Made by a program: the position numbers and the translations under genes. Shown piece by piece: positions 1 to 61,412 of a stretch of DNA of 64,000 nt (position 1 is the first letter of the stretch; each line of letters starts with the position of its first letter). Location of the stretch: contig OY970260.1 in NCBI GenBank assembly GCA_963715625.1, positions 2,439,520-2,503,519 on the forward strand. The letters run 5' to 3'. This DNA comes from an uncultured Solirubrobacterales bacterium. Lineage in GTDB: Bacteria > Actinomycetota > Thermoleophilia > Solirubrobacterales > 70-9. The notes beneath the pieces are model-generated. The model searched no databases, was not told where the DNA came from, and saw nothing but the letters and a program-made list of their open reading frames with translations.

Positions 1-1791
1 ATGCGGATCGTCGCCGACCACTCGCGCGGCGCCTCCTTCCTGATCGCCGACGGAGTCGTGCCCTCCAACGAGGACCGCGGCTACATCCTGCGCCGGATCA
101 TGCGCCGGGCGATCCAGCAGGGCCGTACCCTCGGCCTCGAGGCGCCCTGGCTGGGCCGCTTCGCCGAGCGGACGATCGAGATCATGGGCGAGGCCTACCC
201 GGAGCTGGCGGCCGAGCGCGAGACGATCGCGCGCTGGGTCGGCGATGAGGAGGAGAGTTTCGGCCGCACCCTCGAGCGGGGCAGCGAGCTGCTGGAGCGC
301 CTGGTGGCCGATGCGAAGGAGTCCGAGACCTCCTGGATCGACGCGGCGGACGCCTTCAAGCTCCACGACACCTTCGGCTTCCCTTACGACCTGACCAAGG
401 AGCTGGTCGCCGAGCAGGGGCTCTCGGTCGACGACGGCGGCTTCGAGGAGCTGATGGAGGAGCAGCGCCAGCGCGCCCGCACCGGCGCCGCCACCGCGCA
501 CGGCTCCGAGGATCGCCACGAGCGGGTGATCGCCTTTGCCGGCGAGACGCCGCCCACCCGCTTCGTCGGCTACGAGACGCTGCGCGCGACGACCGGCCTC
601 GCTGGCGTCGAGAGCGACGACGGCCGGGCCCTGGTCAAGCTCGAGGAGAGCCCCTTCTACGCCGAGGGCGGCGGCCAGGTCGCCGACTCCGGCGTGCTGC
701 GCTGGGAGGGGGGCGAGGCGAAGGTCCTCGACGTCTACAGGGTGGGTGAAGACCAAGCGCTCGAGGTGGAGCCCGGGGAGATCGACCCCGGGGCCGCGGT
801 TGAGGCTGTGGTTGACAGGGAGACCCGCCACGCGACGATGCGCAACCACACCGCCACGCACCTGCTCCACGCCGCACTGCGCGAGCGACTCGGCACCCAC
901 GTCCGCCAGGCAGGGTCTGCGGTCCGCCCCGACAAGCTGCGCTTCGACTTCACCCACGGCCAGGCGCTCGGCGCCGAGGAGCTGCGCGCGGTCGAGGACC
1001 GGGTCAACGAGTGGGTCAAGGCGAGCCGGCCGGTGCGCTGGCTGGAGATGGAGCGGGCGGAGGCCGAGCGCCTCGGCGCGATGGCGCTCTTCGGCGAGAA
1101 GTACGGGGAGTGGGTGCGCGTCGTCGAGGTCGACGGGGTCTCGCGCGAGCTCTGCGGCGGCACCCACGTCGCCAACACCGCCGAGGTCGGCATCTTCAAG
1201 ATCGCCTCGGAGGGGTCAAGCGCCGCCAACGTGCGCCGGATCGAGGCCCTCACCGGCCCCGCGGCGATTGACTGGTTCCGCGAGCGCGAGGATCGGCTGC
1301 GCGAGGTCGGCGACGTGCTCGGCTCGCCTCAGGACCCGGTGGCCGGCGCCCGCCGCGCCGCCGAGCGCTTGCGCGAGGCCGGAGCGGGCGCGCAGCAGGC
1401 CCAGAAGCAGGTCCTCGGCGAGGAGGCGGAGCGGCTGGTCGGCGAGGCGGCCGAGGTGGGCGCGGTCAAGGCGGTCGTCGCGCGCGTCCCGCTGGCCGAC
1501 CAGAAGCAGCTGCTCGAGCTCGCCAACCGGGTCCAGTCGAAGCTCGGCGGCGACTCCGCGGTCGCCCTCGGCGGGGCGGAGGGCGACAAGGTCGCCCTCG
1601 TCGTCCTGGTTTCCAAGGGCGCCGTCGAGAAGGGACTCTCCGCAGCCGAGATCGTCCGCGAGGCAGCCGCGGTCGCCGGCGGCGGCGGCGGCGGCCGCGA
1701 CGACATGGCCCAGGCCGGCGGCATGGATGTCGCCAAGCTCGACCAGGCGCTTGAGACTGCCCGCGGCGCGATCGAGCGGAAGGCCAGGTAG
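1..1791 (+). CDS. alaS: alanine--tRNA ligase, C-terminal ~596 aa (5' end outside window)
   Basis: ORF open from base 1; editing-domain motifs HTATHLLH and CGGTHV; Gly-rich C-terminal domain; followed by ruvX-mltG as in many bacteria. Confidence 0.9.
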   Translation: MRIVADHSRGASFLIADGVVPSNEDRGYILRRIMRRAIQQGRTLGLEAPWLGRFAERTIEIMGEAYPELAAERETIARWVGDEEESFGRTLERGSELLERLVADAKESETSWIDAADAFKLHDTFGFPYDLTKELVAEQGLSVDDGGFEELMEEQRQRARTGAATAHGSEDRHERVIAFAGETPPTRFVGYETLRATTGLAGVESDDGRALVKLEESPFYAEGGGQVADSGVLRWEGGEAKVLDVYRVGEDQALEVEPGEIDPGAAVEAVVDRETRHATMRNHTATHLLHAALRERLGTHVRQAGSAVRPDKLRFDFTHGQALGAEELRAVEDRVNEWVKASRPVRWLEMERAEAERLGAMALFGEKYGEWVRVVEVDGVSRELCGGTHVANTAEVGIFKIASEGSSAANVRRIEALTGPAAIDWFREREDRLREVGDVLGSPQDPVAGARRAAERLREAGAGAQQAQKQVLGEEAERLVGEAAEVGAVKAVVARVPLADQKQLLELANRVQSKLGGDSAVALGGAEGDKVALVVLVSKGAVEKGLSAAEIVREAAAVAGGGGGGRDDMAQAGGMDVAKLDQALETARGAIERKAR

Positions 1792-1799
1792 CGGCAGCG

Positions 1800-2204
1800 G
1801 TGCGCGTGCTCGCGCTGGACCACGGCACGGCGCGGATCGGCTGCGCGATCTCCGACCCGAGCGGGACCCTGGCGACGCCGATGGCGACGATCGAACCGCC
1901 CGAGGCGCGCGCGGTCGCCGAGCTCGTCGCGAAGTACCAGGTCGAGCGCGTCGTGGTCGGGCTGCCGCTGCACCTGAGCGGCGAGGAAGGCAGCCAGGCG
2001 GCCCTGACTCGGACCTTCTGCGGCGAACTGGAGGCGATCCTCGACGTCCCGGTCGAGACCTACGACGAGCGGCTGACGACCCGGATGGCCGAGGCGAGCA
2101 GGCGCGAAGGGGCGACGGCAGCACCGGACTCGATCGCCGCAGCCCACCTGCTCCAGGCCTACCTCGCCGGTCGCGCCGCGATGGAGGGGGGCGACGATGA
2201 GTGA
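1800..2204 (+). CDS. ruvX: Holliday junction resolvase-like protein RuvX/YqgF
   Basis: N-terminus VLALDHGTARIGCAISD typical of YqgF family; position directly after alaS. Confidence 0.85.
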   Translation: MRVLALDHGTARIGCAISDPSGTLATPMATIEPPEARAVAELVAKYQVERVVVGLPLHLSGEEGSQAALTRTFCGELEAILDVPVETYDERLTTRMAEASRREGATAAPDSIAAAHLLQAYLAGRAAMEGGDDE

Positions 2205-3198
2205 CGACCGCGCTGCCGCCGAACGCGAGCAGCGGCGTCGCGAGCGCGAAGCGCGTCGCGCCGAGCGCGGCGGCGATCCGCCGCCGCCGGTCGATCCGCC
2301 CCCCTCGCCCCCAAAGCCACCCAAGGTGAAGAAGGAGAGGTCACCGCGCTCGCCCGGCCGCCGCCTCGGCATCGCCGTCGGCGTCGCCGCGATCGTCCTC
2401 GGCGTCGCCGCGATCGCCGCCTTCGCCTACCGCCACTTCACCCGCGATGCGCCGCCCCCGGTCGTGATCAGGACGATCACGGTGACGGTCCCCGAGGGCT
2501 ACACCCGGGCCCAGACCGCCGAGCTCGCCAGGGCCGAAGGGCTGCGCGGCAGCTACGAGCGGGCGAGCGTCCGCTCCCCGTACCTGAGCCCGGCCAAGTA
2601 CGGGGGGAAGGAGGCCAAGAACCTCGAGGGCTTCCTCTTCCCCGACACCTTCGAGCTGGAAAGGCACGCCGGCGCCGCGGCGCTGGTCCAGCTGCAGCTC
2701 GAAGACTTCAAGCGGCGCATCAAGGGCGTCAACATGAGCTACGCGCGCTCGAAGAACCTCACCACCTACGACGTGGTGACGATCGCCTCCCTGGTCGAGG
2801 AGGAGGCGCAGCTCGAAAGCGAGCGCCCGCTGGTCGCGGCCGTGATCTACAACCGGCTGCGCGAAGGCATGCCCCTCGGCATCGACGCGACGGTCCGCTT
2901 CGCGACCGGCAACTACACCGAGCCGCTGACCGAATCCGAGCTCGCCGTCGACTCGCCATACAACACGCGGCTCAAGGCCGGCCTGCCGCCGGGGCCGATC
3001 GGCAGCCCGGGCCTCGCATCGATCGAGGCCGCGGCGCATCCGGCCAAGGTCGACTACCTCTTCTACGTGGTCGATCCCGGCAGCTGTGGCAAGCACGCCT
3101 TCTCCGCGACCGAAGCCGAGTTCCAGCGCGACGTCGAAAGCTACGAATCGGCGCGAGCCGCGGCCGGCGGCAACTCGCCCGACAGCTGCGGGGAATAG
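2197..3198 (+). CDS. mltG: endolytic transglycosylase MltG (YceG-like)
   Basis: N-terminal TM segment, YceG-type core (EGFLFPDTF, ASLVEEE, PPGPIGSPG); overlaps the ruvX stop. Confidence 0.85.
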   Translation: MSDDRAAAEREQRRREREARRAERGGDPPPPVDPPPSPPKPPKVKKERSPRSPGRRLGIAVGVAAIVLGVAAIAAFAYRHFTRDAPPPVVIRTITVTVPEGYTRAQTAELARAEGLRGSYERASVRSPYLSPAKYGGKEAKNLEGFLFPDTFELERHAGAAALVQLQLEDFKRRIKGVNMSYARSKNLTTYDVVTIASLVEEEAQLESERPLVAAVIYNRLREGMPLGIDATVRFATGNYTEPLTESELAVDSPYNTRLKAGLPPGPIGSPGLASIEAAAHPAKVDYLFYVVDPGSCGKHAFSATEAEFQRDVESYESARAAAGGNSPDSCGE

Positions 3199-3200
3199 AA

Positions 3201-3992
3201 GTGCCGCGGCTCGCCGTCCTCGGGCACCCCGTCGGCCACTCCCGCTCGCCGGCGATGCAGGGCGCGGCGCTGGCCGAGCTGGGGCTGGGGAGCGAGTGGA
3301 GCTACGAGGCGATCGACGTCGCCCCCGATGCCTTCGAGGCGCGGGTGCGGTCGATGCCGGAGGAAGGGTTCGCCGGCGCCAACGTCACCGTGCCCCACAA
3401 GGGGGCCGCGCTCACCCTCGCCGACGATCTCTCCGAGGCAGCCCGTGAGATCGGCGCCGCCAACACACTGGTCTTCGCGCAGGGTGAGATCCGCGCCGAG
3501 AACACCGATGCGGACGGTCTGCTCAACGCGCTGCCGGCTTCCCCGGCAGGCAGGCGGGCACTCGTGCTCGGCGCCGGCGGCGCCGCCCGCGCCGTCGTCT
3601 GGGCCCTGTTGCGCGAGGGTGCCGAGGTGGCCGTCTGGAACCGGACCGAGTTGCGCTCGCGCAACCTCTGCGAGGAACTGGGGGGCGATCCCGTCGCCGA
3701 GCCGGGCCAGAGCACGTTCGACCTGATCGTCAACTCGACCGCGGTCGGCCTGGGCGGCGAGGACCCGTTCGCGGAGCTGCCCCTGAATCCGGCCAGCTTC
3801 GCGTCTGGACAGACCGTGGTGGACATGGTCTACGGCCCGAAGCCAACCGGCTTGCTGCGCGCTGCCGGGGCCGCAGGCGCCACCACCGTTGACGGCCTGG
3901 AGGTTCTCGTCCAGCAGGGCGCCCTCTCGCTCGAGATCTGGACGGGATGCAAGCCACCACTCGACGTCATGCGTGCTGCAGCTCGGACATAG
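3201..3992 (+). CDS. aroE: shikimate dehydrogenase
   Basis: GHPVGHSRSP and NVTVPHK motifs, GAGGAARAV Rossmann motif; in aro cluster. Confidence 0.87.
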   Translation: MPRLAVLGHPVGHSRSPAMQGAALAELGLGSEWSYEAIDVAPDAFEARVRSMPEEGFAGANVTVPHKGAALTLADDLSEAAREIGAANTLVFAQGEIRAENTDADGLLNALPASPAGRRALVLGAGGAARAVVWALLREGAEVAVWNRTELRSRNLCEELGGDPVAEPGQSTFDLIVNSTAVGLGGEDPFAELPLNPASFASGQTVVDMVYGPKPTGLLRAAGAAGATTVDGLEVLVQQGALSLEIWTGCKPPLDVMRAAART

Positions 3993-4108
3993 GGCATACC
4001 CCGGCAGGGGTGGAACGTCTTGTACTTTTTCGCGGGAGCACGCCCGGGGCGCCAGCGATCCAGCGATCCACGAAAAAGTTAAGTGGAACCCCTGCCGGGG
4101 TATGCCCT
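3992..4108. repeat. 117-bp palindromic intergenic element, family 1, copy 1
   Basis: Outer perfect 20-bp stem GGGCATACCCCGGCAGGGGT / ACCCCTGCCGGGGTATGCCC; inner stem ACTTTTTCG / CGAAAAAGT; homologous in reverse orientation to 36080..36197 and 41181..41296; begins at the G of the aroE TAG stop. Confidence 0.85.
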
Positions 4109-4137
4109 CCCACACCTGCCGCCTATAGCCTTGCGCC

Positions 4138-5307
4138 ATGAGCACGCGCTTTCGATTCACGACTGCGGGCGAGTCGCACGGGCCGGGGCTCGTCGCGATC
4201 GTCGAGGGTATGCCGGCCGGCCTCGTGCTCGACCGCGAGGCGCTCGACCGCGACATGGCCCGGCGCCAGCTCGGCCACGGCCGCGGCGGGCGGATGAAGA
4301 TCGAGACCGACACGGTCGAGGTCCGCTCGGGCCTGCGTCACGGCCGCACGCTCGGCAGCCCGATCGCCGTCCTCGTCGCCAACCGCGACTACGCCAACTG
4401 GGAGGAGCGGATGAACCCCTGGCCGGTCGAGGCCGAGGTGGACGAGGTCCACCTGCCGCGCCCCGGCCACGCCGACCTGGTCGGCGCCCAGAAGTACGGG
4501 CACGACGACATCCGCAACGTGCTCGAGCGGGCCAGCGCCCGCGAGACCGCGGCCCGGGTGGCGGCCGGCTCGATCGCCCGCGGCTTCCTCACGGACCTTG
4601 GCGCCAGCGTCCACAGCCATGTCACCCAGATCGCCTCGGTGACGGCGCCCGAGCGGCCCGACCTGGGCCCCGAGGACTTCGCAGGGGTCGACGACGATCC
4701 GGTCCGCTGCCTCGACCCCGAGGCCGGCGCGGCGATGGTCGAGGAGATCAACCGGCTGCGCAAGGCCAACGAGAGCCTCGGCGGCGCCTTCGAGGTGCTC
4801 GCCTTCGGCCTCGTCCCCGGCCTCGGCTCCCACGTCTCCTGGGAAGACCGCCTCGACGGCCGCCTCGCCGGCGCCGTCGCCTCGATCCAGTCGGTCAAGG
4901 GGATCGCGATTGGGGAAGCGTGGGACGTCGCCGGCCGGCCCGGCTCCGAGGCCCACGACGAGATCTTCTGGTCGCAGGAGCGGGGCTACTTCCGCGAGAC
5001 CAACCACGCCGGCGGCGTCGAGGGGGGGATGACCAACGGGCTGCCGCTGTCGGTGCGCGCCGCGATCAAGCCGATCTCGACCCTGACCAAGCCGCTGCGC
5101 TCGGTCGATACCGAGACCAAGGAGCCCGCGCAGGCGCTCCGCGAGCGCACCGACTCGACCGTGGTGCCCGCGGCCGCGGTCGTCGCCGAGGCGATGGTCT
5201 GCCTCGTCCTGGCCCGTGCCTACCGCGAGAAGTTCGGCGGCGATCACATCGACGACGTGCTCTCCGCGGTCGAGGCGTACAAGCAGCGAATCGACTTCCG
5301 AGGGTGA
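4138..5307 (+). CDS. aroC: chorismate synthase
   Basis: MSTRFRFTTAGESHGPG N-terminus and full-length collinear chorismate synthase motifs. Confidence 0.93.
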   Translation: MSTRFRFTTAGESHGPGLVAIVEGMPAGLVLDREALDRDMARRQLGHGRGGRMKIETDTVEVRSGLRHGRTLGSPIAVLVANRDYANWEERMNPWPVEAEVDEVHLPRPGHADLVGAQKYGHDDIRNVLERASARETAARVAAGSIARGFLTDLGASVHSHVTQIASVTAPERPDLGPEDFAGVDDDPVRCLDPEAGAAMVEEINRLRKANESLGGAFEVLAFGLVPGLGSHVSWEDRLDGRLAGAVASIQSVKGIAIGEAWDVAGRPGSEAHDEIFWSQERGYFRETNHAGGVEGGMTNGLPLSVRAAIKPISTLTKPLRSVDTETKEPAQALRERTDSTVVPAAAVVAEAMVCLVLARAYREKFGGDHIDDVLSAVEAYKQRIDFRG

Positions 5308-15784: not shown

Positions 15785-16174
15785 TCCCAGGCGGTCAAGC
15801 TTACGGCCTCCCGACCCTGCTCAGCGAGCCCAAGTCGATGTCTCGAAGCGTCGCGTCGCCGGACTGTTCCTCGAATGCGAGCCCCAATCCCCATGCTGGC
15901 GAGCCCATGGATCAGGCCGTCATCCCGGTAAGGACGATAGTGCTGCCATGGCATTAAAGGCCGAGTGGAGCATTGCCCATGGTGACCAATCGCCTACGAA
16001 AAGCGTTACGGTATATCGCCCAGTGCGGTCCAGCGCCCTGCGACTTAAAAGAGTCACATATCTAACTTTTTTGCAACATTTTGTAAGCCCCAGTCGTGTG
16101 ATAGCGTGCCTTCCCGATTGACGGATCTCGCCTCAATGTGCGGGGAAACACTGGATGACGTAGAGGGAGGCAGG

Positions 16175-18853
16175 ATGCGGCAAGCCGATAGTGGGCTGGG
16201 ACTCTTGAAGCGACCGGGCGTGGGCGGCCGCTCCCGTGGCCGGAATCTGATCAGCCTGGCGACGGCAATCGCTGCTATTGCGACGGTCTTCTGCTTGGTT
16301 ATGCCCGTCCTTGCCAGCGCTGCGCCTTTTGAGACGCTCAAAGTCAACACCGGCGGCCACGGCCAGGGATACGCCTACAGCACCAACCTGAGCGGGATCG
16401 TCTGCGGCCACGGCAGCGAATACAGCTCCTTCACAGAATGCGAAGCGGCCTATGCCACCGGCGCCACCGTCGAACTGCGCGCCTCGTGGACCGGCAGCGT
16501 CAACGTCGATTGGAGCGGCTGCGACGAACTCACCGAAGACAACTACTGCCTCGTGACGATGAACGCGGACAGGGAAGTCACCGCCACCTTCGGCACTCGC
16601 CTGCTGACCGTCAACACCGGCGGCCACGGCCAGGGATACGCCTACAGCACCAACCTGAGCGGGATCGTCTGCGGCCACGGCAGCGAATACAGCTCCTTCA
16701 CAGAATGCGAAGCGGCCTATGCCACCGGCGCCACCGTCGAACTGCGCGCCTCGTGGACCGGCAGCGTCAACGTCGATTGGAGCGGCTGCGACGAACTCAC
16801 CGAAGACAACTACTGCCTCGTGACGATGAACGCGGACAGGGAAGTCACCGCCACCTTCGGCACTCGCCTGCTGACCGTCAACACCGGCGGCCACGGCCAG
16901 GGATACGCCTACAGCACCAACCTGAGCGGGATCGTCTGCGGCCACGGCAGCGAATACAGCTCCTTCACAGAATGCGAAGCGGCCTATGCCACCGGCGCCA
17001 CCGTCGAACTGCGCGCCTCGTGGACCGGCAGCGTCAACGTCGATTGGAGCGGCTGCGACGAACTCACCGAAGACAACTACTGCCTCGTGACGATGAACGC
17101 GGACAGGGAAGTCACCGCCACCTTCGGCACTCGCCTGCTGACCGTCAACACCGGCGGCCACGGCCAGGGATACGCCTACAGCACCAACCTGAGCGGGATC
17201 GTCTGCGGCCACGGCAGCGAATACAGCTCCTTCACAGAATGCGAAGCGGCCTATGCCACCGGCGCCACCGTCGAACTGCGCGCCTCGTGGACCGGCAGCG
17301 TCAACGTCGATTGGAGCGGCTGCGACGAACTCACCGAAGACAACTACTGCCTCGTGACGATGAACGCGGACAGGGAAGTCACCGCCACCTTCGGCACTCG
17401 CCTGCTGACCGTCAACACCGGCGGCCACGGCCAGGGATACGCCTACAGCACCAACCTGAGCGGGATCGTCTGCGGCCACGGCAGCGAATACAGCTCCTTC
17501 ACAGAATGCGAAGCGGCCTATGCCACCGGCGCCACCGTCGAACTGCGCGCCTCGTGGACCGGCAGCGTCAACGTCGATTGGAGCGGCTGCGACGAACTCA
17601 CCGAAGACAACTACTGCCTCGTGACGATGAACGCGGACAGGGAAGTCACCGCCCTCTTCTGCCTCGAAGGGGAAGCCCTCGAAGAATGTACGGCGGAAGG
17701 CCCCACCAACCGCCGCACCCTGACCGTCACCAAGGAAGCCGGCGGCACTGAAGGCATCGGCACGGTCAAGTCCAAACCGAAGGGGATCAACTGCGCCACG
17801 GCCTGTGACGAAGCCGTCGGCTCCTTCTACAAAGAAGGCCCGGTCACCCTGACCGCCAAACCGTCGGCCACCTCGACCTTCGTCAAATGGGTCAACCCGG
17901 GTGGGGCCTGCGACGAAAGCGCCTCGCTGGCCTGCGTGATGCCGATCGCAGAAGACGAATCGCTGGAAGCGCTCTTCACCGGCACCTCCAAAGCGATCGC
18001 CTCGCCGACGGCACTGATCGTCTCCAAGGGCGAAAGCCCCAAAAACCTCGGCTTCGGCACGGTCAAAGCAACCGGCCTGTACTGCGAAGCCGAATGCACC
18101 ACGACCACCGTCCTCTACCAGGGCACGATCACCGAACCCAAACCCAAAGCGGCGAAAACCGTCGTCCTCAGCCAGACCCCGCTCTACGGCTCCGAATTCA
18201 CCGGCTGGTCGGGCTGCGACTCAGAAGCCGAAGGCAAATGCACGGTGGCGATGTCTGAAGCCAAAGAAGTCACCGCCGAATACACGGCCAAGCCCAACGT
18301 CGCCCTGACCCTCGAAAAGGCAGGCACCGGCACCGGCACGGTCACCTCCAAACCCAAAGGCGTCAAATGCGCGGTCACCTGCACCGTGCAGACGATGTCC
18401 GTCCCCTCCGGGGAAGCAGTCGTCCTCACCGCCAAAGCGGCCACCGGGATGACCTTCACCGGCTGGTCGGGTGGCGGCTGCTCGGGCACGGGTACCTGCA
18501 CGGCCAACCCGACAGAAGCGACCACGGTGACGGCGACCTTTTCGGGCTCGCCCAAACCGATCCTGAGCCCGACGGCTCTGACCGTCTCCAAGGGCGAAGG
18601 AACGGGCTACGGCACGGTCAAAGCCGCGGGGATCGCCTGCGAAGCGCTTTGCACCTCGGCGACCTCGCTCTACCAGGGCACGATCACCGAACCGAAACCC
18701 AAAGAAGCCAAAACGGTCACGCTCGAAGCCTTCTCGGCCCCGGGCTCCCAGACCGTCGTCTGGAGCGGTTGCGACTCCGAAACCGAAGGCAAATGCGTCG
18801 TGCAGATGTCCTCGGCCAAAGAAGTCACGGCCACGTTCGACGAACTGGAATAG
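16175..18853 (+). CDS. secreted repeat protein with ~10 divergent InlB B-repeat-like modules
   Basis: ATG 16175 preceded by GGAGG; signal peptide ending VLASA-AP; recurrent module W(S)GC..(E)..C.V.M...(K/R)EVTA.F resembling the divergent InlB B-repeat / Listeria-Bacteroides repeat. Confidence 0.72.
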   Translation: MRQADSGLGLLKRPGVGGRSRGRNLISLATAIAAIATVFCLVMPVLASAAPFETLKVNTGGHGQGYAYSTNLSGIVCGHGSEYSSFTECEAAYATGATVELRASWTGSVNVDWSGCDELTEDNYCLVTMNADREVTATFGTRLLTVNTGGHGQGYAYSTNLSGIVCGHGSEYSSFTECEAAYATGATVELRASWTGSVNVDWSGCDELTEDNYCLVTMNADREVTATFGTRLLTVNTGGHGQGYAYSTNLSGIVCGHGSEYSSFTECEAAYATGATVELRASWTGSVNVDWSGCDELTEDNYCLVTMNADREVTATFGTRLLTVNTGGHGQGYAYSTNLSGIVCGHGSEYSSFTECEAAYATGATVELRASWTGSVNVDWSGCDELTEDNYCLVTMNADREVTATFGTRLLTVNTGGHGQGYAYSTNLSGIVCGHGSEYSSFTECEAAYATGATVELRASWTGSVNVDWSGCDELTEDNYCLVTMNADREVTALFCLEGEALEECTAEGPTNRRTLTVTKEAGGTEGIGTVKSKPKGINCATACDEAVGSFYKEGPVTLTAKPSATSTFVKWVNPGGACDESASLACVMPIAEDESLEALFTGTSKAIASPTALIVSKGESPKNLGFGTVKATGLYCEAECTTTTVLYQGTITEPKPKAAKTVVLSQTPLYGSEFTGWSGCDSEAEGKCTVAMSEAKEVTAEYTAKPNVALTLEKAGTGTGTVTSKPKGVKCAVTCTVQTMSVPSGEAVVLTAKAATGMTFTGWSGGGCSGTGTCTANPTEATTVTATFSGSPKPILSPTALTVSKGEGTGYGTVKAAGIACEALCTSATSLYQGTITEPKPKEAKTVTLEAFSAPGSQTVVWSGCDSETEGKCVVQMSSAKEVTATFDELE
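16343..17653 (+). repeat. tandem array, 267-bp unit x ~4.9 (89-aa unit), in-frame within the repeat protein; units read as identical
   Basis: Units start at 16343, 16610, 16877, 17144, 17411; nucleotide sequence reads as identical across units by eye; identity decays after 17653. Confidence 0.95.
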
Positions 18854-33531: not shown

Positions 33532-36197
<2,666 letters not shown>

Positions 36198-36231
36198 GGT
36201 CGCGCCGTATCCCGGCTAGCCTGTCCCGGTT

Positions 36232-37341: not shown

Positions 37342-38403
37342 GCGGCCGGCTGAAGCTGCGCCGCGGCGTCGTCGTCGGTGAGGAGCCGCTGACGGTCGAG
37401 ATCGACGGCGAGCGCCGCGCCGCCTGGGCCGATACGGCCCTGCTAGGCGAGATGCGCGAGGGCGACGAGGTCGTCGTCAACGTCGAGGCCGTGGACCTGG
37501 GCCTCGGCTCGGGGGGGTTCGACGTGGTCCACGTCAACCTCACCCGCGGGCTTGAAGGGGGTGGGCCGCCGGGCGACGAGCACGCGATGAAGCTGAACTA
37601 CAGCCCCCTCCAGCACGCCGTTGACCCCGTTCGAGCTTCCGGTGCGCTTTATGCCACCCATGACTACAAAAGGCGCACCGGAAGGGGGGAGGGCGACGAT
37701 GCCGGTGCTGGTCCTGCCGCTGCACGGGCACCTGGCGCCGGCGGCCTGGGCGGCGGCGCAGGAGGCTCCGGGGCTGAAGGTGGGCTACGTGCAGACGGGG
37801 GGAGGGGCGCTGCCGGGCTCGCTCAGCCGCGACGTCGCTGAGCTGCGTGAGCGGGGCCTGCTCTGCGGCCACGTCACCGCTGCACCGGCCTACGGAGGCG
37901 AGCACGAGGCAGTCTCGGTCGCGGGTGCGCTCGACGCCGCGGCGCAGTCCCTCGGCTGGGACGCGGCGATCGCCGGCCCCGGCCCCGGCATCATCGGCTC
38001 CGACACCCGCCTCGGCCACGGCGGCATCGCCGCCCTCGACACCGCCCACGCCTCTCTAGCCCTCGGCCTCCCGACCCTGCTCTCCCCGCGCCTCTCTAGC
38101 GCCGACCCCCGCGAGCGCCACCGCCCAGTCAGCCACCACACCCTCACAGTCCTCCAAATGCTCCTAGCCCCCGTAGAGATCCCAGTCCCGGCCAGCGACC
38201 CAATCCCGATCGCGATCCTCGCCACCGCCGCAGGCTGGCGCCACCGCCTCACCGAGGCACAAGCAAATCTCCCCGGCTACACAAGCTCAAACCTCCCAGC
38301 CCGGACGATGGGCAGGTCCATAGAAGAGGACCCACTCTTCTTCGCAGCAGCTCTCGCTTCCGGCCAGGCCCTGGCCGCTTCGACCGCGGGTGGCGTGGGG
38401 TGA
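37338..38403 (+). pseudogene. DUF3866-family gene split by a 49-bp hairpin repeat (N part 37338..37635, C part 37685..38403)
   Basis: N part ends ...MKLNYSPLQHAVDPVR; C part ...MPVLVLPLHGHLAPAAW... is in the +1 frame; removing 37636..37684 gives one 338-aa ORF. Confidence 0.6.
37636..37684. repeat. hairpin repeat, family 2, copy B (inside DUF3866 coding sequence)
   Basis: CTTCCGGTGCGC (37636..37647) pairs with GCGCACCGGAAG (37673..37684). Confidence 0.8.
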
Positions 38404-40455: not shown

Positions 40456-41181
40456 ATGGCCGGAACGACGCTGAAGACCGAGGCGGTGGTGCTGCGCGGC
40501 ATCCGCTACGGCGAGGCCGACCGGATCCTCCACCTCTACTCGCAGACGCGCGGCAGGATCGGCGCGATCGCCAAGGGGGCACGGAAGCCCAGGTCGCGCT
40601 TCGGCGGCCGCCTGGAGCCCTTCTTCCGCCTCGACCTGGTCCTGCACGAAGGGCGGGGCGAGCTGCTCACGGTCACCAATGTCTCCACCGTCAACGGCTA
40701 CCCCCGGCTGCGCGCCTCCGGCCCGGCGCTGAACGCGGGCGCCCGCGCCTGCGACGCGGTGCTGCGGTTGCTCGACTCGGCTGAGCCGAATCCGCCCGCC
40801 TACAACCTGCTCTGCCGCTACCTGGCGCTGCTAGATGACCCCGGCGCGGAGCGGGCAAGCGGCCTCGAGACGGCGCTCTCCTTCCGCCTCAAGCTTGCGC
40901 TCGCGGCCGGCTTCGCGCCCGAGCTCGCCTCCTGCGCACACTGCGGCGAGGCCGAGCACCTGAGCGGCTTCTCCGGCGCGGCCGGGGGCGTCGTCTGCAC
41001 GAGCTGCGAAGCGGGCGCCTTCCCGCTCTCCGAGGAAGCGCACCGCTTCATGGTCGAGGCGATCGGCAGCCCGCTCGCCGAGGCGCCGGAGGCCGAGGAG
41101 CTGGCGCTGCGCCAGGTCGAGCGGGCTGTGGGCGAGACCCTCGAGCACCATGCGCACGTGCAACTGCGGAGCGCAGCGTAG
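40456..41181 (+). CDS. recO: DNA repair protein RecO
   Basis: OB-fold N-terminus (EAVVLRGIRYGEADRILHLYS), zinc motif CAHCG...CTSC. Confidence 0.88.
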   Translation: MAGTTLKTEAVVLRGIRYGEADRILHLYSQTRGRIGAIAKGARKPRSRFGGRLEPFFRLDLVLHEGRGELLTVTNVSTVNGYPRLRASGPALNAGARACDAVLRLLDSAEPNPPAYNLLCRYLALLDDPGAERASGLETALSFRLKLALAAGFAPELASCAHCGEAEHLSGFSGAAGGVVCTSCEAGAFPLSEEAHRFMVEAIGSPLAEAPEAEELALRQVERAVGETLEHHAHVQLRSAA

Positions 41182-41296
41182 GGGTCGGTCCCGGCAGGGG
41201 TTCCGCTTAACTTTTTGGGTGGGGCGGGGAACGGCTGGCGCCCCGAGCGGGTTGACCAAAAAGTACAAGACGCTCCACCCCTGCCGGGACCGACCC
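41181..41296. repeat. 117-bp palindromic intergenic element, family 1, copy 3 (same orientation as copy 2)
   Basis: Outer stem GGGGTCGGTCCCGGCAGGGG / CCCCTGCCGGGACCGACCC; begins at the G of the recO TAG. Confidence 0.85.
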
Positions 41297-41309
41297 TTAG
41301 GATCGACGG

Positions 41310-48544: not shown

Positions 48545-48618
48545 GGGGCGGTAGCTCAGCTGGTCAGAGCAGCGGACTCATAATCCGTCGGTCGAAGGTT
48601 CGAGTCCTTCCCGCCCCA
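48545..48618 (+). tRNA. tRNA with CAT anticodon (elongator Met or Ile2; not initiator type)
   Basis: Manual cloverleaf: GGGGCGG/CCGCCCC acceptor with 1:72 G-C, GCTC-AGCTGGTCA-GAGC, GCGGA-CTCATAA-TCCGT, GAAGG-TTCGAGT-CCTTC. Confidence 0.92.
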
Positions 48619-49399: not shown

Positions 49400-49552
49400 T
49401 GAAACTTGGTCCCGAAATTGGTCCCCGACTCCACCGAACTCAGCCGAACTCCCTGGACGCAGTTCGCTGTCACAGGCCAGATTCGGCTCTATAGACGGGT
49501 TCCGGCGCGACTCATAATCCGTCGGTCGAAGGTTCGAGTCCTTCCCGCCCCA
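49400..49552 (+). repeat. island-end repeat plus att core copy 2 (tRNA 3' half)
   Basis: 49509..49552 is 44/44 identical to tRNA positions 48575..48618; the preceding ~105 bp is about 90% identical to 50493..50602. Confidence 0.88.
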
Positions 49553-49714
49553 TCAAGAAACGGCTCTGGAATGCGAAGTGTCGAGATCGCGAAGGAGATT
49601 TGGTCCCGAAATTGGTCCCGAACTCCCCCGGACCGCTCCGGACCGTGCCCTACCGCTTCGCGCCGGGGGGGGGCATGACAAGGCGGCACCCGGTTAGGCA
49701 GAGTGCCGGGCCAG

Positions 49715-50492: not shown

Positions 50493-50646
50493 CGAAAACT
50501 TGGTTCCGAAATTGGTCCCCGACTCCACCGAGCTCAGCCGAACTCCTTGGACGCGATTCGCTCTATTGGGCCAAATTCGGCTCTATAGACGGGTTCCGGC
50601 GCGACTCATAATCCGTGGAGCGCAGGTTCGAGTCCTGCCCGCCCCA
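50493..50646 (+). repeat. island-end repeat plus att core copy 3 (diverged tRNA 3' half)
   Basis: 50603..50646 matches the tRNA 3' half at 39/44; T stem GCAGG/CCTGC versus GAAGG/CCTTC is a compensatory pair. Confidence 0.85.
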
Positions 50647-50657
50647 TAGTCGAGCGG

Positions 50658-60860: not shown

Positions 60861-60909
60861 CTTCCGGTGCGCTTTATGTGCCCATAGGTGGCATAAAGCG
60901 CACCGGAAG
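60861..60909. repeat. hairpin repeat, family 2, copy C
   Basis: CTTCCGGTGCGCTTTATG (60861..60878) pairs perfectly with CATAAAGCGCACCGGAAG (60892..60909); lies in a divergent intergenic region. Confidence 0.8.
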
Positions 60910-61031: not shown

Positions 61032-61412
61032 ATGGCCCGCCTGGCGGTGCTGGTGGTGGCGGTCGGCGCCTTTGGCGCGATCGCGGCCGGATGCGGGGGC
61101 GACAGCGACAGCGACAGCGTCTCGGAGGCCGAAGAGCGGCTCGAACGCGGTCTCGAAGAAGCTAAGAAGGGGCTCGAAAAAGCCAAGGGCGAAGTGAAGA
61201 AGGGCTTCAACGAAGCGGAAAAGGCCACCAAGCAGGGTGTCGAAAAGGGCAAGGAAGAAGCCAAGAAGGGCATCGAAGGCGGCAAGGGCCAGACCGAAAA
61301 GACGATCGAACAGGCCGAAAAGGAAGCCAAGCAGGGCATCGAAAAGGGCAAGGAAGAAGCCAACGAGGCCATAGAGGAAGCCGAAAAGCAGGCCGAAAGG
61401 TACGGCTACTGA
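61032..61412 (+). CDS. K/E-rich repeat lipoprotein (LEA-like)
   Basis: ATG 61032 after GGAGGGGG; lipobox AAGC; repeated AKQG(V/I)EKGKEEA(K/N) units. Confidence 0.6.
   Translation: MARLAVLVVAVGAFGAIAAGCGGDSDSDSVSEAEERLERGLEEAKKGLEKAKGEVKKGFNEAEKATKQGVEKGKEEAKKGIEGGKGQTEKTIEQAEKEAKQGIEKGKEEANEAIEEAEKQAERYGY

Follow-up and report, generated by a model that had tools for sequence, protein, structure and literature searches.

ERIC/IRU elements of enterobacteria and Correia elements of Neisseria are palindromic miniature inverted-repeat transposable elements (MITEs), imperfect palindromes of 100–150 bp that are found in both orientations. They lie in transcribed intergenic regions of operons, where their long RNA hairpins affect mRNA processing and stability, and show insertion polymorphism between strains. 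Both duplicate a TA target. REPINs, the repeats of the RAYT / TnpA(REP) system, measure ~100–120 nt and consist of two inverted arms and a spacer that together form one long hairpin. Compensatory changes across REPIN hairpins are common (PMC3116915). Here we describe a repeat of the same overall build, present in three copies in a 64,000-nt stretch of DNA from an uncultured Solirubrobacterales bacterium (assembly GCA_963715625.1, contig OY970260.1, positions 2,439,520 to 2,503,519), which was analysed as a whole and is hereafter called the window. With a probability of about 0.7, we consider this element to be a REPIN/MITE-like, non-autonomous, hairpin-forming mobile repeat of Solirubrobacterales (Thermoleophilia, Actinomycetota) that is kept symmetric at the DNA level.

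The three window copies are palindromes of 118–121 bp each (Table 1), and copy 1 is oriented opposite to copies 2 and 3. Their distal stems, AGGGCATAC, CGGGGACTGT and TA[G/A]GGGTCGGT, differ from copy to copy, and each complements its own opposite arm. Alignment of the three copies and their flanks with MAFFT gave a mean column identity of 83%, with two long conserved arms around a variable centre. A covariance model of the element (R1) found exactly three copies in the window, at 111–121 bits, the next best match scoring 19 bits. On both strands the copies fold as RNA at −70 to −77 kcal/mol (z-scores −6.6 to −8.5) and as single-stranded DNA at −42 to −46 kcal/mol (z-scores −6.6 to −8.0). Given this gap in score and the fold z-scores, the three copies are not chance palindromes. 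According to NCBIfam, copy 1 lies between aroE (shikimate dehydrogenase) and aroC (chorismate synthase), copy 2 between pyrG (CTP synthase) and a PepT-like M20 peptidase gene, and copy 3 between recO and a dGTPase gene (dgt). The stops of aroE and recO overlap the outer stem, and that of pyrG lies inside the element, in CCGGTAGGGG, where T at the Y/R pair creates it; this pair of the conserved body is T-A on both arms in copy 2, versus C-G in copies 1 and 3. The right end of copy 3 reads TTA, i.e. TAA on the minus strand. An earlier note, made from the letters of the window, had reported three such palindromes at or over the TAG stops of aroE, pyrG and recO, with copy 1 inverted and with distal stems that differ yet remain self-complementary. 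Counting the palindromes, comparing the copies and the minus-strand hit of the covariance model bear out each of these observations, and its spacing of 14–35 nt to the next gene holds roughly, as we count ~29, 33 and 10–22 nt for copies 1, 2 and 3.

The window copies belong to a large family. Since the two 11-nt ends alone proved too loose a pattern in viral contigs (11 matches, all chance, without internal similarity), a longer one-arm pattern, the left arm AGGGGTTCCRCTTAACTTTTT, was used for the genome scan, with one genome per species. It recovered at least 117 stretches, nearly all titled Solirubrobacterales or other Thermoleophilia. We extracted 116 distinct complete copies, including the three of the window and those of the RecO loci; these make up alignment A2, and R1 was built from them. 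As the left inner arm served as the search pattern, its invariance across the 116 copies is a matter of construction, and only the conservation of the right inner arm, which played no part in ascertainment, is unbiased. In ~0.96 Mb of loci fetched around copies (given L numbers below), R1 found ~16 further copies missed by the pattern, most of them above 90 bits and three degraded. By rough extrapolation, the copy density is ~25 per Mb, or tens to perhaps a hundred copies per genome of 2.5–3 Mb. Some copies are nested or abut one another.

All copies share one anatomy. An outer stem of ~15 bp (consensus ..A/G-G-R-G-S-C-N-R-T-C-C-C-G-G-Y), in which conserved positions alternate with hypervariable ones (4–6 positions), is followed inwards by the invariant hexamer pair AGGGGT/ACCCCT, so that terminal inverted repeats pair over ~21 bp. 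Next comes a conserved but asymmetric module: one arm has TTCC-R-CTTAAC, the other GTACAAGACG-Y-TCC, R and Y being paired. Further in lie an inner stem, ACTTTTTSG/CSAAAAAGT, and a GC-rich centre of 35–42 nt that occurs in several exchangeable types. The conserved asymmetric arms as a whole read AGGGGTTCCRCTTAACTTTTT and AAAAAGTACAAGACGYTCCACCCCT. In the window, Rfam matched two tRNAs only and gave no match to the element at the gathering threshold; a permissive scan of copy 2 returned chance hairpin matches far below threshold. Our literature search found no description of the family or its sequence, nor of any repeat family in Solirubrobacterales. The element family is thus a previously undescribed member of the known class of hairpin-forming mobile repeats, in agreement with the view of the earlier note that it is MITE-like and belongs to no named family.

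Complementarity of the variable stems is maintained throughout the family. Counted outwards from AGGGGT/ACCCCT, the arms pair in 86–98% of the 116 copies at positions 1–13, in 77% at position 14 and in 64% at position 15, and from position 16 on pairing stays at ~33%, the background level. All four Watson-Crick pair types occur at the variable positions; at position 9, for example, A-T is found in 16 copies, T-A in 28, G-C in 26 and C-G in 41 (96% paired). Across the 116-copy alignment, 92.4% of the cells of the named structure are paired, compared with 78.0% in shuffles, and 628 cells are changed on both sides, a number that none of 500 shuffles reached (197±16). The covariation score amounts to 0.402, whereas shuffles give 0.123 and slid partners 0.06–0.09. 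Covariation extends inwards: R of TTCC-R-C covaries with Y of ACG-Y-TCC (GC in 61 copies, AU in 54, other in 1), as do the two basal pairs of the ACTTTTTSG/CSAAAAAGT stem. Hardly any G·U pairs occur, with at most 2–3 per stem pair. Both a wider search for copies and a covariation test had been proposed with the earlier note, and both come out in favour of a real, maintained complementarity, which is also seen as both-arm changes between copies at the same site. One detail departs from symmetry. At position 1, the Y/R pair next to AGGGGT, one-sided mismatches are unequal, with left C/right A in 12 copies and T/G in 1, which could be due to mutation or repair that is biased by strand, or to selection for TAG on one strand.

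Filled and empty junctions show where the element inserts. At the pyrG junction, copy 2 is absent from L012, L013 and L014 (RecO 89–94% identical to that of the window), where pyrG stops at the TAG of a conserved TAGCCTGTCC. The motif survives in the window, with its TAG at 36216-36218, and excising 36079-36198, as read from the sequence, brings this TAG into the pyrG frame. At aroE, copy 1 has counterparts of the same position and orientation in L134 and L136, and L135 is empty. In L135, aroE ends with CCGCCGATAGCCTTGG, a motif that survives at 4119-4134 in the window; excising 3991-4108 (118 nt), again as read from the sequence, brings its TAG at 4126-4128 into the aroE frame. The empty sites and the relic in-frame stops thus show that the insertions of copies 1 and 2 took place within the last codons of their genes and that the new stop comes from the element. 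Other sites agree: in L106 (filled, versus L046 and L124, empty) the element begins exactly at the stop codon, in L022 and L042 (filled, versus L117, empty) two convergent genes both stop in the element termini, and L025 and L077 form a further filled/empty pair. Moreover, both strands show an excess of stop codons at the boundary (61 and 66 of 116 ends, versus 5–20 in control windows). Of the genes that read into a copy, ~60% terminate at the boundary or inside the element, in the latter case with the CCGGTAGGGG TAG or the TAA in CTTAAC. The element thus inserts at the 3' edges of genes, often inside the last codons, with the stop taken from its terminus, the CCGGTAGGGG TAG or the CTTAAC TAA. 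Genes were assigned to strands with a caller that applies a GC1>GC2 filter and still miscalls recO; the count of 63:49 for the two orientations relative to genes comes from this imperfect caller, and we therefore claim no orientation bias. Both orientations occur within operons.

These junctions also bear on the origin of the distal stems. The earlier note had considered that the element inserts into pre-existing terminator palindromes, in which case it would sit in the loop of a terminator hairpin and the distal stems would come from the target. Such an origin would account for stems that differ between copies and for copies just past stop codons, where terminators are expected, and the empty site L124 does have a native hairpin after the stop codon. 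That hairpin, however, is unrelated to the stem at the filled site, and none of the empty sites at pyrG, aroE, L117, L046, L077 and L124 holds a palindrome matching the distal stem. Copies 1 and 2, furthermore, lie inside former coding sequence. The stems share a positional consensus over all 116 copies, they change on both arms while a vertically inherited copy stays at its site, and they have no counterpart at empty sites. The distal stem is therefore part of the element rather than of target origin, and insertion into terminator loops is very improbable.

We also considered a classical MITE, derived from an insertion sequence and moved by a DDE transposase that targets TA- or TNA-like sites, which at ~70% GC would be rare except at stop codons. 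Terminal T-N-A-G motifs in about a quarter of the ends, the association with stop codons and the terminal inverted repeats are all in line with this. No direct target duplication of 3 bp or more, however, is in excess at any boundary offset or length, although a 2-bp palindromic duplication is possible. Moreover, the N of the two T-N-A ends matches in 0 of 13 cases, and the TNA model is rejected. Neither does an insertion sequence with these ends occur in ~1 Mb of fetched loci, and separate binding of a transposase at each end would leave the complementary changes at variable positions unexplained, so that this origin is unlikely. The missing target duplication and the hairpin architecture rather incline us towards an HUH/Y1 or another non-DDE enzyme. 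Integron attC sites, which are likewise imperfect palindromes that follow gene ends, were rejected as well, as the neighbours are syntenic housekeeping genes, ends of the GTTRRRY type are lacking and the ends are variable around a conserved core.

Several further arrangements were observed at copies or at the same junctions. Left-arm fragments ending at CTTA lie 0–13 nt before the left boundary of a complete copy in L034, L093, L027 and L036, and none was seen on the other side or in the other orientation; they may be traces of a cleavage/joining site at CTTA|A or of copy-by-copy replacement. In L056, an ISL3-type insertion sequence lies inside an element copy (~1622-4473). In L019 and L086, from two genomes, a copy is cut after AAAAAGT at the same nucleotide by a related sequence (CACGTACCTTT..GCCTAGCCTT), followed by a small open reading frame (ORF), possibly for a DNA-binding protein; an integrating element may use the repeat as its attachment site there. 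At the recO-dgt junction of L013 (10727-10841), a different insert of ~100 nt stands in place of copy 3, bounded by CTAGACGCCG and CGGCGTCTAG, with an inner hairpin TGTGTGC/GCACACG and unique among the fetched loci; it may represent another palindromic element family sharing this junction. Finally, the aroC-aroK/B junction carries a 49-nt spacer with the hairpin GATTTTCCAT...ATGGGAAATC in L134 (4105-4153) and L136 (4107-4155), absent from L135 and the window, which may be another small gene-junction insertion.

Once inserted, copies stay for long periods. Same-site groups were defined by BLAST of the flanks, pairs within a group not being independent, and include the junctions hemA-hemC, secA-prfB, thrC-side and recO-dgt across species. 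At the last of these, the copies of L012 and L014 orthologous to copy 3 have different but complementary stems. Same-site copies share their orientation in 51 of 52 pairs, which argues for common descent over repeated insertion; on this agreement, together with several clearly related centres, repeated independent insertion is rejected as the main cause. Descent of resident copies has thus been vertical over long periods. Thirteen same-site pairs have centres that are still recognisably related; among them, 34% of centre sites and 3.3% of inner-arm sites differ, and the outer-stem pairs have changed on both arms in 31% of cases (53 of 169) and on one arm in 8% (13 of 169). In each of the 53 both-arm changes, the pair is Watson-Crick in both copies; 30 are transition-type and 23 transversion-type (~43%). 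For example, L018 and L087 differ at 4 of 35 centre sites and at three stem pairs, each changed on both arms, and copy 1 and L136 differ at ~12% of their centre as well as at 2 of 13 stem pairs. Evolution is also mosaic: the same outer stems enclose unrelated centres at the same site (L074/L091, L018/L038, and L134 versus the window and L136), and near-identical centres occur in 90 copy pairs outside shared site groups, such as the recO copy of L012 and L063. This fits a swapping of centres from copy to copy, in which the conserved inner arms would be the homology anchors.

What keeps the arms complementary can be approached from these rates. In quasipalindromes, template switching turns an arm mismatch into a perfect pair by using the other arm as template (PMC7202029). 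By a similar route, a mutation in one arm of the element would be reverted, or copied onto the other arm, by templated correction during replication or repair, with the template switch taking place within the hairpin or cruciform. Stem pairs change at about the single-site rate of the centre, one-arm and G·U intermediates are few and transversions are many; such a pattern is unlike the slow two-step compensation of RNA helices and is what templated arm-to-arm correction predicts. A continuous conversion tract from another copy does not account for these changes, since the centre between two changed arms is retained. On the strength of these substitution patterns, we are inclined to see DNA-level self-correction as the main cause of arm complementarity, with selection for the hairpin substrate as a possible addition. 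Of the options raised in the earlier note, the one in which the element regenerates its palindromic ends comes closest to the data, in the sense that one arm would be corrected against the other, as the both-arm changes suggest.

The earlier note had also proposed selection for a long hairpin, as a structured RNA, terminator or processing site; a stabiliser would be a further RNA-level role. Very stable folds, strong covariation and the location of copies at cistron 3' ends within operons are what a structured RNA would show. Copy 1, however, is inverted in a like operon context, and no robust orientation bias was detected (63:49). The asymmetric conserved blocks would read differently in the two orientations. 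G·U pairs are nearly absent, and the transversion-type changes, 23 of the 53 compensated ones, have no route via G·U. Neither a canonical promoter nor an intrinsic terminator was found in or at the three window copies, which lack a U-tract, and the element matches no Rfam family, whether the gathering threshold or a permissive E-value is applied. A structured RNA as the primary identity of the element is therefore quite unlikely. When transcribed as part of an operon, the hairpin of about −70 kcal/mol would probably act as a 3' barrier or processing site, as a side effect rather than as the cause of covariation.

The near-invariant, asymmetric inner arms would, in the mobile-repeat reading, be the recognition site of a trans-acting transposase or recombinase and double as anchors for the swapping of centres. 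They can also be read in another way, namely that the host has retained the element, with purifying selection on each copy because a host protein binds it or uses it for recombination (compare REP/BIME with gyrase and IHF), or because it serves as a cistron-boundary module of stop codon and mRNA 3' hairpin, its mobility being ancestral or rare. Site and orientation are retained between species with only 75–90% identity in the flanking genes, copies occupy housekeeping operon junctions (hemA-hemC, secA-prfB, aroE-aroC, recO-dgt), few are decayed (~3 of the 16 non-ascertained ones), and the contrast between inner arms and centre given above is as expected under such constraint. On the other hand, presence/absence polymorphism at pyrG, aroE and other sites marks the copies as dispensable, both orientations occur, exchange between copies could itself conserve the arms, and no candidate binding protein is known. 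Domestication is thus possible, though doubtful.

Some observations weigh against a mobile repeat symmetrized by its own correction. Near-invariant inner arms in long-resident copies are unexpected for a purely selfish repeat, and a host function may be involved. Arm correction is read from rates and pair types, and strong selection for the hairpin with rapid compensation may have acted instead. A phmmer search with E. coli RayT, a single distant query, gave no match at E ≤ 10 in 9,379 ORFs (the window and the loci, ~8 kb per copy), and no parent insertion sequence or transposase with the same termini occurs in the fetched loci (~1 Mb). Nearby ISL3, IS1595 and IS1380 genes are unrelated insertions, and the genes between copy pairs, considered as a source of a common transposase, turned out to be ordinary housekeeping genes or unrelated insertion sequences. 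The border between element and target is blurred, with pairing decaying over positions 13–16 and terminal stop-like triplets in three registers, and the per-genome copy number (~25 per Mb) is itself a rough extrapolation. As a tentative extension of the mobile-repeat reading, the element and its hosts could form a REPIN-like, vertically inherited partnership served by a non-RAYT protein, in which copies act as stop-and-hairpin cassettes at cistron boundaries, with arms that are self-corrected and inner arms refreshed by exchange between copies.

Table 1. Positions in the window of the three element copies, the parts of copy 2 and the present and ancestral stop codons
Feature	Position	Strand	Remarks
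Copy 1, complete element, 118 nt	3991..4108	-	covariance model 111.5 bits on minus strand
aroE present stop TAG	3990-3992		overlaps copy 1 outer stem (element-terminal TAG)
Relic ancestral aroE stop, TAG in GCCGCCTATAGCCTTG	4126..4128	+	18 nt downstream of copy 1
Copy 2, complete element, 120 nt, within pyrG 3' end	36079..36198	+	118.7 bits
Copy 2 left outer stem CGGGGACTGTCCCGGT	36079..36094	+	pairs with 36183-36198
pyrG present stop TAG in CCGGTAGGGG, inside element	36094..36096	+	ORF 33577-36096 = CTP synthase
Copy 2 conserved left inner arm AGGGGTTCCGCTTAACTTTTT	36095..36115	+	
Copy 2 variable GC-rich centre with GGCGCC	36116..36157	+	exchangeable between copies
Copy 2 conserved right inner arm AAAAAGTACAAGACGCTCCACCCCT	36158..36182	+	asymmetric to left arm
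Copy 2 right outer stem ACCGGGACAGTCCCCG	36183..36198	+	
Relic ancestral pyrG stop, TAG of conserved TAGCCTGTCC	36216..36218	+	
Copy 3, complete element	41179..41299	+	121 bits
recO stop TAG	41179-41181	+	overlaps copy 3 outer stem

The window holds other repeats. A second, unrelated small palindromic repeat (CTTCCGGTGCGC, ~25 nt, GCGCACCGGAAG) occurs at 37633-37686 and 60861-60909 in mutually inverted copies that are ~84% alike, both of which R1 detects as weak generic hairpins. Within the ORF at 16106-18853 (915 aa), five tandem 267-nt units, four of them 99–100% identical, span 16336-17703, and further repeats spaced 555 nt follow at 17753-18832; the ORF appears to encode a repetitive protein, either secreted or at the cell surface. 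Of the tRNA gene at 48545-48618, the 44 nt at the 3' end are found again at 49509-49552 (100%) and 50603-50646 (89%), inside 152-nt repeats at 49402-49553 and 50496-50647; tandem integration of one or two small elements at a tRNA attachment site is the probable origin. At 61155-61352 lie two 99-nt units in tandem that are 72% alike and A/G-rich, with GAA, AAG and GGC triplets.

Solirubrobacterales abound in soil and are known almost exclusively through metagenome-assembled genomes. A repeat that probably reaches tens of copies per genome matters for assembly, strain typing and gene calling, the last illustrated by aroE and pyrG, whose C-termini and stop codons have been rewritten by the element. 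Moreover, 116 copies with same-site relatives provide clean data on palindrome evolution, in which both-arm changes outnumber one-arm changes 4 to 1 at an approximately neutral rate, and make the choice between hairpin selection and templated self-correction directly testable. They also call for caution in the discovery of RNA motifs, as the strong covariation here is no sign of a functional RNA. Should the partnership outlined above be true, the family would be a natural system of templated compensatory evolution at a neutral rate.

Compared with known systems, the element shares with intrinsic terminators a GC-rich hairpin right after a stop codon. It differs from them in lacking a U-tract, the T and A runs lying inside the hairpin in the wrong arrangement, and neither its size of 118–121 nt nor its mobility fits a terminator. 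ERIC and Correia elements are alike in size and operon context. Their TA duplication, however, has no detected equivalent here, and there is no sequence similarity; we know of no description of hypervariable complementary termini in either of them. Quasipalindrome correction is a mutational mechanism rather than an element family. It was shown experimentally in E. coli and yeast, whereas here we infer it from the substitution pattern. It predicts Watson-Crick-only pairs, transversion-type double changes and a pair rate close to the single-site mutation rate, and all three are seen in the present family. REPINs differ in several respects. REPIN-RAYT systems have been described in Pseudomonas, E. 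coli and Nostoc, whereas the present hosts belong to an actinobacterial order, and the cognate RAYT of those systems, a single-copy Y1/HUH transposase gene that the repeats usually flank, has no counterpart near element copies in our limited search. In REPINs the ends are most conserved, whereas here the interior asymmetric blocks are conserved and the ends hypervariable, and the present copies often overlap or interrupt the last codons of a gene and donate its stop codon. A tetranucleotide of the GTAG type, conserved at the base of REP hairpins, does occur within CCGGTAGGGG, in 69 of the 116 left arms and in 78 of the right arms (others have GCAG or a different variant), although its place relative to a REP-like mini-hairpin is uncertain. 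Overall, REPINs are the closest known system: like the element, they occur in tens to hundreds of copies outside genes, leave no detectable target duplication, persist vertically for long periods and undergo compensatory changes that keep the hairpin.

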